Positions 1-4,360 are shown, counted from the stretch's first letter. The stretch: 64,000 nt of DNA from Bacteroidales bacterium (GCA_029932855.1 JAOZPG010000001.1:83404-147403), one strand, 5' to 3'. Translations and numbers: made by a program. Notes: generated from the sequence alone by a model not told the origin.

Positions 1-1215
1 GGCTCTCAGCGCTTTTGCCAGTGTCAGCCTGAATGAGTTTGCAACAGGTATAATACCAATTAAGAAAGTAATTATAAAAACAGTTATTACTTGATTATAA
101 AAAACAGACGGGATCCAGGAAAAATACATATTAGGCTCTAGTCCCATCTCAATCATGGTCTCAGCTGCATCTCCTGTTAATTTAACCGGATTATTATAGA
201 AGTAGCTTATTAAAGGTATACTTCCCATAAATCCGCTTAATACTCCGGTCAGTCCAATAAACACTGTTTCATAAAACAGTATTAATCCCAGCTTTGCTCT
301 TTGAAGTCCTATAGCCACAAGAACTCCCATTTCCCTTCTTCTTTCTGCAAGCATCATGCTTATAGTACCCAGAATGCCAAAACCAATAACTAAATATAGT
401 ATCCCTTTCATTACAACAGCACCTGCCCGGTCTGCTTCTATCATTTGTACAAACTCGGGCTGCATTTCATCCCAGGTCATTAAGGTATATGGAGACTTTA
501 TTTTCTTATTCAGAACACGCCTGGCGTGGGGCAGATCATAAGGACTGTCAAGCATAACTATCAAGGAACTTACCAGCCCCTCGGCAGAGAAAAATTCCTG
601 ACAATTTTCCAGGTCCATATAAACCAGTTGCCTGTTAAGATCCGGGGAGGGCAGATCAATAATTCCTTTTACAGGATATTTGCCGGCAGCACTGAGCCCG
701 TGATATCCCTGCCCCAGGAGCACCAGTGTATCATTAAGCCCCAGCTTTAAATAGTCTGCAAGTCCCGCGGCAAGTAGTATTCCGTCATCTCCCGGCAAGA
801 GTATTTTTCCAGATGACAACCATTTACCAATACCCATCATCTGCTCTTCCTTTGCCGGGTCTATCCCAATTAAGATTGTACCCCTGCTCTGGTCATTGGT
901 TGAAGCCAGGGCAAAAGATTCAAGCCTGGGGACAACATAACTTACCCTGTCAGAAGAGGAAACCTTTTTTAAAAGTTCGTCTGTAAGTTTAATGGTATTA
1001 TTTATTGTTTTATGATCCCAGTAATCTTCATTCTGAACCTGTATATAACCGGAATAAAATTTTACCACATTATCAACCATTGTGCTATAGGAACCTTCCT
1101 GCATTGAAGACATAAATGTTGAAACAATGACTCCAAAAAACACAGAAGCAACAGTTATCAATGTCCTTTTCCTGTTTCTCCATAAATTTCTCCAGGCAAT
1201 TTTAAGATTTTCCAT
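1..1215 (-). CDS. ABC transporter permease, FtsX/MacB/LolC-type; 405 codons open, stop codon lies just outside the window
   Basis: Absent from the ORF track because there is no stop in the window. I read the minus frame codon by codon from the ATG at 1215 to base 1 and found no stop. The N-terminus MENLKIAWRNLWRNRKRTLITVASVFFG and C-terminus ...RLTLAKALRA parallel the adjacent 405-aa paralog. Confidence 0.85.
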   Translation of the reverse strand, partial: MENLKIAWRNLWRNRKRTLITVASVFFGVIVSTFMSSMQEGSYSTMVDNVVKFYSGYIQVQNEDYWDHKTINNTIKLTDELLKKVSSSDRVSYVVPRLESFALASTNDQSRGTILIGIDPAKEEQMMGIGKWLSSGKILLPGDDGILLAAGLADYLKLGLNDTLVLLGQGYHGLSAAGKYPVKGIIDLPSPDLNRQLVYMDLENCQEFFSAEGLVSSLIVMLDSPYDLPHARRVLNKKIKSPYTLMTWDEMQPEFVQMIEADRAGAVVMKGILYLVIGFGILGTISMMLAERRREMGVLVAIGLQRAKLGLILFYETVFIGLTGVLSGFMGSIPLISYFYNNPVKLTGDAAETMIEMGLEPNMYFSWIPSVFYNQVITVFIITFLIGIIPVANSFRLTLAKALRA

Positions 1216-1282
1216 TTGTTATTATTTGTTTCCGGTTCTATAGTTTACTTCAGATTAACAATTAATAGCTGAAGGCTGTTGC

Positions 1283-2500
1283 TTAAGCCCGTAATGCATT
1301 TACTGCCTTCAATCTAATTACAGATATAAGCGGATAAATAGCAATAACTATAGATATTATAAATATACTTATTGCGGGATTTAAGAATATATGTATTTCA
1401 TTACTGAATATAAGTACCGGTTCAAAGCCCATTTCCCCATATAATTCCCCCATTTCTCCCCCTATCTTAATAGGATTTCTCACAAAATAGTTAACAAGGG
1501 GAATACAAAATATAAAGCTAAAAAACACACCGGTAGCTGCTATAAGCAATGATTCAAGAAAAAGAATAAGCGAAAGCCATAAACGGTTCATCCCAATGGC
1601 TATCATAATTCCCAGTTCTCTTTCTCTTTCTGCTATCATCATTATAAAAGTTCCCAGTATGCCAAAGGCTATTATTATAAAAAGTATAATAATAAATATC
1701 TTTCCGCTGGAGGTCTTTCCATCAATAAGCTGGACAAGCTGAGGCTGCAGGTCTTCCCATCTCAAATAAACAAATTCCGGATTGTCTATTTGTTCAAGAC
1801 TTTTCATCAGTGCTGTCAGTGTGCCTGGTTTTTCCACCATAAGGATAAGGGATGTTACAGTTCCCGGGACCTGAAAGAAATCACCGGCAGTGCCAATATC
1901 CATATATAATATCTGGCGGTTTAACTCTGATATGGGGAATTTCAATAGCCCCCTTACAGCAAACAGGCCTGCTACCTGTACCCCATGATATCCCTGTCCT
2001 ATAAGTATAATTGTGTCACCGGTATTTACTTCAAGCTTATTGGCAAGAAGTTCTCCAAGAAGTACCCCTCCGGGATCATCACCGGAGTAGGAACCCTGAA
2101 TAATCCATTGTGAAAGTTTAGAGATTTTGTCTTCATTCTCAAAATTAACACCTATGACAGCAGTCCCGTAACTTTTTTCCCCGGTTGCAATTAGGGAAAA
2201 AGTTGAAAGCCTGGATGTATATTTACTTATGAATTCGTTATTATCAAGAAAGTTATAAAGTTCTTCATCAGGTATAAAACCATTGTTCAGGCTCTTGTTA
2301 TCCTTATAATCAATATTCTGTATCTGTGCATAACCGGTTGTAAAACTGACCATGTTGTCAACCATATTATCAAAAGAACCAGTCTGAAGAGAGCTTAATG
2401 CCACTGCCCAGAGCACACCAAAAAAAACAGAAGCTATTGTTATGAGGGTTCTTTTCCGGTTCCTCCATAAATTACGCCATGCTATTTTTAAAAGTTTCAT
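1283..2500 (-). CDS. ABC transporter permease, FtsX/MacB/LolC-type (tandem paralog)
   Basis: 405-aa ORF. The N-terminal KIAWRNLWRNRKRTLIT motif is followed by a TM helix, a large extracytoplasmic domain, then three C-terminal TM helices ending IRLKAVNALRA. Confidence 0.9.
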   Translation of the reverse strand: MKLLKIAWRNLWRNRKRTLITIASVFFGVLWAVALSSLQTGSFDNMVDNMVSFTTGYAQIQNIDYKDNKSLNNGFIPDEELYNFLDNNEFISKYTSRLSTFSLIATGEKSYGTAVIGVNFENEDKISKLSQWIIQGSYSGDDPGGVLLGELLANKLEVNTGDTIILIGQGYHGVQVAGLFAVRGLLKFPISELNRQILYMDIGTAGDFFQVPGTVTSLILMVEKPGTLTALMKSLEQIDNPEFVYLRWEDLQPQLVQLIDGKTSSGKIFIIILFIIIAFGILGTFIMMIAERERELGIMIAIGMNRLWLSLILFLESLLIAATGVFFSFIFCIPLVNYFVRNPIKIGGEMGELYGEMGFEPVLIFSNEIHIFLNPAISIFIISIVIAIYPLISVIRLKAVNALRA

Positions 2501-2535: not shown

Positions 2536-3306
2536 TCAGCGTATTCTTTTCATATTCTGTATTGAGAAAAAACTATCTTTTATATCGACATTAAAAATTA
2601 TGTTATTGAATTCCATTATGGTCATATAGCCATCTTTTTCAACAGGTACAATTTCAAAGCGAGTAGGTATCAGCCTGTCACCTATATTTTTAATCTTTGA
2701 TAATGTTTCACGGTTTACCAGGTATCCGTCTTCATCGTAATACTCGTTTTTTAATGTAATATATTCGTTTACAGATATCCATGAAATAATTTTACCCCAT
2801 ACAACCGGAGTATCCTCATCGGGTACAAGTTCTATAATATAGCATTCGTAGTCATCAATAATTTCCCTTCCAAGTAACTTATGTTCATAATCTTCAACGA
2901 TAGAAGATTCCTTTACCAGGTCATCATTGGTCATATCTGAGCCCATCCATGACTGCATCATCATTGATGGTGGTATTTTTATCATTCGTTCAATTGACGG
3001 CAGCCAGTTCCACATTTCCTTGTCCCTTTTAAGAAACACCTGTCCCTTTTCCTTTGCAGGGGCAGTAACATATATCAACGAATATTCTGTCCCTTTCGAC
3101 CATGTCTTAAATGATAATGATCTTTCCCATTTAGGACGCATTATTGTCATTGTCATTTCCCCCCGGCTTGTTTTGCCACGCATAAGCTCATAGGCTTTAT
3201 CAACTATATCTTTTGCAGATACTTCCTGTGCTTTGGCTGCTTGTGTACTGAGTGCTATAATAATTATAGTAATTACCAGTCGAAATTTGTAAATAATACT
3301 TTTCAT
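2536..3306 (-). CDS. secreted LolA-like outer membrane lipoprotein-sorting family protein
   Basis: 256 aa with an N-terminal signal peptide (ALSTQAAKA/QE). The block KGQVFLKRDKEMWNWLPSIERMIKIPPSMMMQSWMGSDMTNDDL matches my memory of the LolA_like family that accompanies FtsX permeases. It lies 35 nt upstream of the permease gene. Confidence 0.7.
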   Translation of the reverse strand: MKSIIYKFRLVITIIIIALSTQAAKAQEVSAKDIVDKAYELMRGKTSRGEMTMTIMRPKWERSLSFKTWSKGTEYSLIYVTAPAKEKGQVFLKRDKEMWNWLPSIERMIKIPPSMMMQSWMGSDMTNDDLVKESSIVEDYEHKLLGREIIDDYECYIIELVPDEDTPVVWGKIISWISVNEYITLKNEYYDEDGYLVNRETLSKIKNIGDRLIPTRFEIVPVEKDGYMTIMEFNNIIFNVDIKDSFFSIQNMKRIR

Positions 3307-3318
3307 GTCTTAAGGCTA

Positions 3319-3894
3319 TTAAATGTATTTTTTTATTATTATTTCTTTAACTTCCTTTATTTTAAAGTTTTCAGGATTAAGTATATAGTGCATCCCAACA
3401 CCATCAAGTATTGCCCCTATTAGTTTTGCTTCTGCTTCCGGATTTTCTGATCCCTGATTTGTAAAATAATTCTCAAGCATTTGCATTATCGGACTTAAAT
3501 ATTCGTTCAAACTTTTTTCAAACATTTTATATATCATGGGTTTCATAATCAATATAAAATACAGCTTCCAGAAATCTCTGCTATTTTCTAATTTATCCAA
3601 TGAATTTTCAATAAACAGAATAAACTCATCTTTAGTAAGTATGCCATCATGGTTTTGGTCAAAAGATTTGAATATTTCGTCCAGTCCGAAATGAAATATT
3701 TCTGATAGCAGGTCTTCTTTGTTTTGAAAATAATTATAAATAAGTCCCTTTGAGATATTTGCAGCTTTAGCAATTTTATCTATGGAGGTAATATAATAAC
3801 CCTCTTCAGCAAACAGCTTAAGTGCCGTGTTCATAATAAGCTTTCTTTTTTCTTCCCTTATTATTTTTAATTGCTTCGATGTACGGGGTGACAT
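3319..3894 (-). CDS. TetR/AcrR family transcriptional regulator with an EF-hand-like loop
   Basis: HTH region TSIDKIAKAANISKGLIYNYFQNKEDLL. The track ORF extends to 3939, but those first codons coincide with a 20-bp palindrome, so I prefer the ATG at 3894 (MSPRTSKQLK...). Confidence 0.85.
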   Translation of the reverse strand: MSPRTSKQLKIIREEKRKLIMNTALKLFAEEGYYITSIDKIAKAANISKGLIYNYFQNKEDLLSEIFHFGLDEIFKSFDQNHDGILTKDEFILFIENSLDKLENSRDFWKLYFILIMKPMIYKMFEKSLNEYLSPIMQMLENYFTNQGSENPEAEAKLIGAILDGVGMHYILNPENFKIKEVKEIIIKKYI

Positions 3895-3919: not shown

Positions 3920-3939
3920 TTGACTGAATATTCGGTCAA
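3920..3939 (-). promoter_or_regulatory. 20-bp near-perfect palindrome, candidate TetR operator
   Basis: TTGACTGAATATTCGGTCAA is self-complementary at 18 of 20 positions. It lies 26-45 nt upstream of the preferred TetR start at 3894. An imperfect -7-like box (TCaaTTTG on the minus strand, plus-strand 3954-3961) lies just upstream. Confidence 0.55.
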
Positions 3940-4045: not shown

Positions 4046-4360
4046 TTAAACACATTTACTAACACAATCTATAATCTTGCTAAGGTTTTCGTGCTTCAAA
4101 AAGTAATAGGTGTTTTTTCCCTTTCTCAGTGATGACAAAACCCCTTTATCTTTAAGTATGCCCAGGTGGTGTGATGTTGTTGATTGCTGAATATTTAATT
4201 TTTCGTGTATTTCAGATACATTAAGTTTATTATTATCCAAAAGATTTAGAATGGATAGTCTCATGGGGTGAGCAATTGCTTTCAACATGCTGGCAGCAGC
4301 GTCTAATTGTTCTGAATTAAGATCTTTGATTTTCATGCTTAAATGATCTGTTATGTTCAT
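4046..4360 (-). CDS. ArsR/SmtB family transcriptional regulator
   Basis: 104 aa. Winged-helix signature HPMRLSILNLL...NVSEIHEKLNIQQSTTSHHLGILKDKGVL. There is a C-terminal CVSKC cysteine pair and no alpha-3 CxC site. Confidence 0.85.
   Translation of the reverse strand: MNITDHLSMKIKDLNSEQLDAAASMLKAIAHPMRLSILNLLDNNKLNVSEIHEKLNIQQSTTSHHLGILKDKGVLSSLRKGKNTYYFLKHENLSKIIDCVSKCV

Follow-up and report, generated by a model that had tools for sequence, protein, structure and literature searches.

In a 64,000-nucleotide stretch of DNA from a Bacteroidales bacterium (GCA_029932855.1 JAOZPG010000001.1:83404-147403; the whole stretch is referred to as the window, with positions counted from its first letter), a gene on the minus strand at 3319 to 3894 codes for a TetR-family regulator that heads an operon for LolA-like and FtsX-type exporter proteins. 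By its sequence, the loop which follows helix a4 of this regulator is a canonical single EF-hand set within a TetR fold, the protein itself not being an EF-hand-domain protein. The best overall explanation, to which we assign a probability of about 0.5, is that this loop binds a metal, most likely Ca2+, at the connector helix a4 and thereby modulates repression. The features of the regulator on which this reading is based are the following:

3319..3894, minus strand: TetR-family regulator gene, 191 amino acids (aa), with ATG at 3894 and the stop codon at 3319-3321 (Pfam TetR_N; nine-helix AlphaFold2 model; starts of the homologs)
3697..3837, minus strand: helix-turn-helix (HTH) DNA-binding region, residues 20-66 (Pfam TetR_N, PF00440, E=3.5e-17)
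3670..3720, minus strand: helix a4, residues 59-75, the TetR connector and entering (E) helix of the EF-hand (DSSP on the AlphaFold2 model)
3625..3660, minus strand: 12-residue EF-hand loop DQNHDGILTKDE, residues 79-90 (PROSITE PS00018, Pfam, family conservation)
3610..3684, minus strand: match to Pfam EF-hand_1 (PF00036), residues 71-95, model positions 2-26 of 29 (27.1 bits, gathering cut-off 25.4)
3583..3633, minus strand: helix a5, residues 88-104, the exiting (F) helix (DSSP on the AlphaFold2 model)

A canonical EF-hand loop in a TetR-family regulator

Translation of the minus-strand codons at 3660-3625 yields DQNHDGILTKDE followed by phenylalanine (residues 79-91), as a first-pass annotation of this DNA had claimed, and the PROSITE pattern PS00018 is satisfied at every position. 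The ligand positions are occupied by D79 (loop position 1), N81 (3), D83 (5), I85 via its backbone (7), T87 (9) and E90 (12), and the positions that determine loop geometry by G84 (6) and L86 (8). The match is unique among the 45 long open reading frames (ORFs) of the window, which together comprise 18,296 aa. Based on the amino acid composition of the window, 7.5e-4 matches are expected per protein of 191 aa and 0.076 over all 45 ORFs; taken alone, a single PS00018 match would be only mildly unusual.

Besides EF-hand_1, four EF-hand models in Pfam score slightly under their own cut-offs; PF13405 reaches 24.4 bits with a gathering cut-off of 25. Among the family members, 40 of 54 match EF-hand_1 at E<=0.01. 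When the 33-aa segment GLDEIFKSFDQNHDGILTKDEFILFIENSLDKL alone was compared with the sequences in the PDB, the matches were all genuine Ca2+-binding EF-hand proteins, including Arabidopsis CML18 (LREIFRSFDQNKDGSLTELEL; 14 of 21 residues identical), Entamoeba CaBP, KChIP2, NCS-1, hippocalcin, troponin C and calbindin D9k, and no TetR was present among the best 60 of these matches. The window protein and the family members carry one EF-hand per chain, so that hands are not paired in cis to form a four-helix domain, and neither the LolA-like protein nor the FtsX proteins encoded in the window contain the Dx[DN]xDG signature.

The second part of the original claim, that the loop is embedded in a TetR-family regulator, is borne out by the TetR_N match and by a fold resembling that of FadR, NalD and MtrR. 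All criteria checked assign the protein to the TetR family: its C-terminal domain is all-helical, the AlphaFold2 model has nine helices, and in Foldseek this model matches FadR, NalD, MtrR and AcrR with a probability of 1.00 and template modelling (TM) scores of 0.6-0.7, the closest structural neighbours being Bacillus FadR (3whb, 1vi0), the Clostridium FadR-like protein 6azh, NalD, MtrR and AcrR. An identity as FadR equivalog was rejected, as the score against NCBIfam NF053878 is 62.6 bits with a cut-off of 200, and FadR is considered a relative in fold only.

Mechanical ORF calling lets the tetR gene open upstream of ATG 3894, at TTG 3939; since every homolog opens with MSPRT, however, ATG 3894 is taken as the real start. 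The N-terminal arm MSPRTSKQ (residues 1-8, window 3871-3894) is strongly conserved ahead of the HTH, with P3, R4, T5, Q8 and R13 being near-invariant, and may constitute an extra DNA-contacting arm.

Conservation of the motif

From 5.8 billion proteins, 310 relatives were collected, of which the best 120 show 42-100% identity and are mostly 190-200 aa long. In 107 of these 120 homologs PS00018 is found at the same aligned position, and the mean column information of the loop (3.1 bits) lies close to that of the HTH (3.26 bits), compared to 1.9 bits for the a4 stretch before the loop and 2.4 bits for the remaining protein. In a scan of one genome per species of the GTDB, at least 597 species were found to have relatives, and of the best 80 species-representative loci, in which the motif was counted, 75 carry PS00018 at residue 79 or 80. 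The hosts are almost all represented by metagenome-assembled genomes (MAGs) of Bacteroidales/Bacteroidota, together with a few MAGs of Ignavibacteria and Chlorobiota and one cultured strain, Carboxylicivirga fragile (L053). The comparison of orthologs next to LolA-like/FtsX operons that had been proposed along with the original claim thus shows the ligands to be conserved.

These numbers bear directly on the possibility that an ordinary TetR loop matches the PROSITE pattern by chance. Although the pattern is short and degenerate and the long ORFs of the window would be expected to hold about 0.08 matches, chance is refuted by the conservation of the motif at one aligned position across the homologs down to about 42% identity and across the species genomes, with a column information equalling that of the HTH.

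The full ligand set (D1, N/D3, D5, G6, L8, E12) is present in 226 of 342 unique family sequences, and over these 226 motif-bearing sequences the loop residues are distributed as follows:

Position 1: D 100%
Position 2: P 72% (window protein: Gln80, codon 3655-3657)
Position 3: N 80%, D 20%
Position 4: K 47%, H 32%
Position 5: D 99%
Position 6: G 100%
Position 7: V 49%, I 35%
Position 8: L 95%, I 4%, V 1%
Position 9: T 71%, E 17%, S 9%, D 1%
Position 12: E 100%

The resulting family consensus, DPNKDGxL...E, with proline at position 2 in most of the motif-bearing members, might be taken to indicate that the loop is tuned to trivalent, lanthanide-like ions rather than to Ca2+, given that Pro2 occurs in all four loops of lanmodulin and has been connected with a selectivity that is reduced for Ca2+ and raised for trivalent ions (PMC9362731). 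However, the window protein has glutamine at this position, position 9 is threonine and not the extra aspartate of lanmodulin, position 3 is mostly asparagine, and there is one loop compared to lanmodulin's four. In addition, the designations of the Bacteroidota MAG hosts (ChesSed, WORSMTZ, HyVt, Zod_Metabat) suggest that they were sampled from sediments and springs, and a lanthanide-enzyme context was not seen in the related loci examined. Tuning to trivalent ions is therefore very improbable. An outright lanmodulin-type identity was rejected on the grounds of Q2, T9 and the single loop in the window protein and of the family frequencies of P2, T9 and D9 given above, as lanmodulin has Pro2 and Asp9 in each of its four loops (PMC9362731).

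Two side observations concern the distribution of the motif. Within one MAG, Bacteroides sp. SM23_62_1, there are two motif-bearing regulator paralogs (L008 and L011), and some organisms therefore carry duplicate systems. Also, Pfam matches have been precomputed on some family members, for which the databases list the EF-hand match without comment.

Predicted structure of the hand

An AlphaFold2 model of the full-length regulator, built on a 54-sequence alignment of the family, has a mean predicted local distance difference test (pLDDT) score of 94 and a predicted TM score of 0.87, with pLDDT values of 92-93 for the blocks covering the loop. It comprises a helix at residues 59-75, a 12-residue non-helical stretch at 76-87 and a helix at 88-104, and the F helix begins at loop position 10 like in canonical EF-hands. 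The first-pass annotation had described the loop as flanked by helices and located directly after the HTH at the start of the ligand-binding domain (LBD). The model agrees with it on both counts, as it places the loop between a4 and a5 and, at a mean pLDDT of 94, shows a helix-loop-helix arrangement instead of one continuous helix. The position is of functional interest because in TetR proteins the connector helix a4 relays the state of the protein between the LBD and the DNA-binding domain (PMC4150764).

Searches of the PDB with the regulator, both as profile and as single sequence, returned only TetRs with ordinary a4-a5 loops. For an alignment-free model of the fragment 57-106 alone, Foldseek found no significant match, the best EF-hand being troponin C at E=7.4. 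In solved TetR relatives the a4-a5 connection is of similar length but devoid of ligand residues, as in 2eh3 (FEENKEKT-PEELLEMF). Since an ordinary loop of similar length is found there, the hand is not an inserted domain; most probably, the EF-hand residues arose in situ on an existing a4-loop-a5 element of TetR, which fits the convergent origin that has been argued for Dx[DN]xDG loops (PMC3123361). A pairing of two loops across the TetR dimer appears doubtful on general grounds, because the dimer contacts of TetR proteins are made via a8 and a9 (PMC4150764).

Two residues outside the hand differ in frequency between members with and without the motif. E155 (codon 3430-3432, minus strand) is found in 84% of the motif-bearing compared to 48% of the motif-less members, and M139 (codon 3478-3480, minus strand) in 47% of the motif-bearing members, the motif-less ones having assorted residues at this position; both M139 and E155 may contact the loop.

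Loss of the motif in the wider family

A profile search of 1.84 billion cluster representatives (50% identity) resulted in 682 clusters at E<=1e-30, of which the best 149, all full-length and with E<1e-52, were inspected. PS00018 is kept in 56 of these 149 representatives and missing from the other 93. The notion that the motif is a universal trait of the operon's regulator was therefore rejected, the more so as motif-less orthologs keep the operon.

The way in which the motif is missing is, in turn, informative. The ligand scores of 268 members have a bimodal distribution, with 165 members having all six ligands, 83 having at most three and only 20 being intermediate. In the motif-less members the information of the loop columns falls to 0.4-1.8 bits, whereas the HTH and the core residues W109, Y112, Q118, P119, P152, D164, G165 and P178 are equally conserved. 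Because the score is bimodal and only the loop columns decay in motif-less members, the motif is under selection as a unit where it is present, the pattern to be expected of a site that works cooperatively, for example one that binds a metal.

The same observations bear on the view that the loop is conserved for reasons other than metal binding, i.e., that Asp, Asn and Gly are kept for helix capping or for contacts to another protein or an organic ligand, and that the likeness to EF-hands is convergent and non-functional. PS00018 is known for false positives, Pro2 and Leu8 deviate from typical Ca2+ loops, and the motif is dispensable in many lineages, all of which would be in line with this view. 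Yet capping could hardly explain why six ligand or geometry positions, including the bidentate Glu12 and Gly6, are kept together at 95-100%; the all-or-nothing score is what would be expected of a cooperative metal site, and the flanking hydrophobic pattern also fits EF-hand profiles. A non-metal role for the loop is therefore unlikely.

With respect to the direction of change, relic loops point to loss. Examples are the relic loop comparison of FDRNKDGVLTNKEF (P0046) with FETNNDDIITEENF (P0044), at 71% identity outside the loop, and that of FDPNKDGFLTENEF (P0099) with FDQKETGFLTEDEF and YNPNKFEEITEDVF. A crude neighbour-joining tree computed with the loop columns removed implies about 30 state changes, although it is too weak for exact counts, and has a motif-positive root under parsimony. 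We read the motif as a predicted old hand that was lost many times. Multiple independent gains were considered and are less likely than losses, given that the relic loops occur in proteins closely related to motif-bearing ones and that the parsimony root is motif-positive.

The exporter operon and its operator

The genes downstream of the regulator and the site upstream of it are the following:

2536..3306, minus strand: LolA-like / TP_0789-like periplasmic protein, 256 aa (PF17131, E=7e-56; N-terminal signal-like hydrophobic segment)
1283..2500, minus strand: FtsX/MacB-type ATP-binding cassette (ABC) permease 1, 405 aa (Pfam MacB_PCD and FtsX; NCBIfam lolCE-like under cut-off)
1..1215, minus strand: FtsX/MacB-type ABC permease 2, 405 codons (translation; stop codon just beyond the window)
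3920..3939, no strand: 20-bp imperfect palindromic operator TTGACCGAATATTCAGTCAA (minus-strand reading), 26-45 bp upstream of the start codon

The LolA-like gene begins 12 bp past the tetR stop codon, and the order TetR, LolA-like protein, FtsX recurs in practically all related loci whose sequence extends far enough downstream. The operon extends past the window, and a further sequence from the same genome (L089) contains a third FtsX, a LolD-like ABC ATPase and a protein of 347 aa.

The palindrome at 3920-3939, which had been noted before in the window, turned out to be an operator conserved throughout the family with the consensus TTGACyrAmCGTTCAGTCAA. At least one site is located within 200 bp upstream of tetR in 66 of 80 related loci, compared to a single site elsewhere in 804 kb. 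From these sequences, the regulator, the operator and the genes behind it are predicted to form an autoregulated repressor-operator-operon unit. In many loci (among L006-L085) there are two copies of the operator, spaced by about 60 bp and located near -35 and -95 relative to the start codon; the window has the proximal copy only, and no other good copy is found in its 64 kb.

Directly upstream of tetR and on the same strand lies a gene of the ArsR family of HTH proteins (4046-4360, minus strand). It was rejected as a part of the system, since upstream neighbours vary among the loci and it is not conserved beside the TetR gene elsewhere.

Several further observations were made on the exporter genes. 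The genome of the window has three tandem FtsX/MacB permease genes of equal length (405 aa; L089 9680-12160 and window 1-2500), compared to two in most relatives. The last gene of the operon (347-399 aa; L001 12709-13857, L002 12750-13949, L089 13051-14094) does not belong to any family in Pfam or NCBIfam; one of its orthologs has a faint match to DUF1302, which may point to an outer-membrane partner. The LolA-like protein, in turn, has a faint match to DUF1329. In several relatives, small genes coding for PF05635 proteins ('23S rRNA intervening sequence protein', a four-helix bundle) are situated inside or just after the exporter operon (L004 13918-14268, L005 13918-14268, L086 7075-7443 and L001 14024-14398), and such a gene is absent from the operon of the window. 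A functional study of the operon was not found in the literature on TP0789 or on LolA-like/FtsX/TetR.

A putative metal-responsive repressor

In the proposed mechanism, the TetR repressor would bind the 20-bp palindrome that precedes its own gene, thereby controlling the Lol/MacB-like ABC exporter operon, repression, as we infer, being exerted by occupancy of the operator. Helix a4 would serve as the E helix, followed by the 12-residue loop D-x-N-x-D-G-x-L-T-x-x-E and by a5 as the F helix. The loop would bind a divalent cation, most likely Ca2+ and possibly in exchange with Mg2+, which may occupy it at rest, while Glu12 would favour Ca2+. The distance between the two HTH heads is governed by a4 as a lever; a bound metal would therefore be expected to alter the a4/a5 angle and with it this distance, and thus to tune DNA binding, the metal acting either as an inducer or as a co-repressor. 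A hydrophobic ligand in the FadR-like pocket would represent the ancestral input, to which the metal input would add, and this would account for the repeated loss of the hand. A rise in Ca2+, e.g., upon envelope damage in Ca2+-rich marine sediment, would in this way be wired straight to the genes for envelope export.

The single components of this mechanism differ in how well they can be expected to hold. Binding of a divalent cation by the loop is probable. A regulatory and not purely structural role, with Ca2+-dependent repression through a4/a5, is a possibility that falls somewhat short of even odds. More tentative still is the proposition that the protein might be the first one-component bacterial transcription factor to sense cytoplasmic Ca2+ directly through a canonical EF-hand and to switch the repression of an envelope exporter.

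A number of observations weigh against a Ca2+ site that modulates repression. Isolated EF-hands are usually weak binders of Ca2+, and the TetR chain has only one; the concentration of free Ca2+ in the bacterial cytoplasm is sub-micromolar, which renders occupancy uncertain. Proline at loop position 2, as present in most family members, is unusual in EF-hands and is reported to lower their affinity for Ca2+ (PMC9362731), although the window protein has glutamine there. Position 8 is leucine in 95% of the members and not the usual isoleucine or valine, which may reflect the lack of an inter-hand beta-bridge. In a model computed from the single sequence of the fragment comprising residues 57-106, a4 runs through loop positions 1-4 and leaves a loop of five residues, so that the conformation of the loop depends on context and on the alignment. 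Finally, about a third of the wider family has lost the motif fully, in several lineages, and the motif-less regulators P0044, P0088, P0100 and L066 still head the same operon. As the motif was lost repeatedly while the operon, the HTH and the core were kept, the loop is a dispensable add-on, either a further input or a stabiliser.

A role as stabiliser is the essence of the alternative that the loop is a structural metal site, in which constitutively bound Ca2+ or Mg2+ stiffens the a4-a5 junction, induction is brought about by a hydrophobic pocket ligand alone and the metal carries no signal. It would account for the loss of the motif with continued operon association and core conservation, it is in line with a fold that is nearest to the acyl-CoA-binding FadR regulators and thus suggests an ordinary ligand pocket, and most Dx[DN]xDG loops of non-EF-hand folds are indeed structural (PMC3123361). 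On the other hand, structural Ca2+ sites are typically found in extracellular proteins, and a permanently filled one would demand a very high affinity in a cytoplasm low in Ca2+; the loop resides exactly on the allosteric lever a4, and its invariant Glu12 and sensor-like flanks resemble those of signalling EF-hands. We consider a structural site rather unlikely and give preference to a metal site on a4 that modulates repression.

Comparison with known systems

With canonical EF-hand sensors such as calmodulin, CML18, NCS-1 and troponin C, the regulator shares a 12-residue loop in which positions 1, 3, 5, 7, 9 and 12 supply the ligands, position 6 is glycine and position 8 hydrophobic, as well as E and F helices of amphipathic character and a Pfam EF-hand_1 score over the cut-off. 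In contrast to these sensors, its hand is single and unpaired, the helices are supplied by a4 and a5 within a TetR fold instead of by a four-helix domain, and the family has Leu8 in 95% and Pro2 in most of its members. A single EF-hand in an unrelated fold is also found in the lytic transglycosylase Slt35 of E. coli. The convergent Dx[DN]xDG loops described by Rigden et al. 2011 (PMC3123361) provide a wider parallel, being calcium-type loops embedded in unrelated folds; the TetR loop differs from them by its full helix-loop-helix with Glu12 and by its occurrence in a cytoplasmic DNA-binding protein, and a TetR context is not among the cases listed there.

Amongst TetR proteins, the closest relatives in fold are the FadR-type regulators (B. 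subtilis FadR/YsiA, 3whb; C. perfringens, 6azh), with TM scores of about 0.70, a profile E-value of 1e-18 and a similar length of about 190-200 aa. They share only about 20% identity with the regulator, however, their a4-a5 loops are without ligand residues, and their targets differ. Metal responses have precedents within the family, namely TetR with [Mg-tetracycline]+, the Zn sensor SczA and the Cu-responsive ComR. In these cases, a metal or metal-drug complex in the LBD shifts a4 together with a6 and thereby releases the DNA, which is alike, whereas the ligands are His, Glu and Cys residues inside the LBD, which is not. We know of no metal-responsive TetR with an EF-hand loop or with Ca2+ sensing.

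With regard to the link between Ca2+ and transcription, EfhP of Pseudomonas aeruginosa is a Ca2+ sensor that affects transcription, the term 'DNA-binding' being absent from the main text of its description (PMC11559002). Like the regulator, EfhP is a bacterial EF-hand protein that connects Ca2+ to gene expression. EfhP is not known to possess a DNA-binding domain and is an indirect actor, whereas the TetR protein joins EF-hand and HTH in one polypeptide.

Implications

Ca2+ signalling in bacteria is widely suspected, but very few molecular receivers of bacterial Ca2+ are known, and we found none in which an EF-hand is united with a DNA-binding domain. Open-access full texts and preprints yielded no account of an EF-hand within a TetR/AcrR regulator, which agrees with the statement in the first-pass annotation that no characterised EF-hand TetR was known. 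With a motif that is conserved in hundreds of Bacteroidota species, the regulator is a good candidate for direct calcium sensing by a transcription factor. Whether it reads Ca2+ directly is a testable question, given the small, easily expressed protein of 191 aa, the defined 20-bp operator and at least one host in culture, and the close motif-less orthologs provide natural comparison proteins.

TetR repressors are workhorses of synthetic biology, and a natural TetR gated by Ca2+ or another metal would, if confirmed, be a useful scaffold for biosensors. Should the site be only structural, it would still represent a new structural context, albeit of modest importance. If the proposed reading is true, however, the family would provide a clean case of an EF-hand born in a fold of different ancestry, the convergent Dx[DN]xDG sites would be joined by one from a cytoplasmic protein that binds DNA, and bacterial Ca2+ signalling would gain a direct transcriptional receiver.

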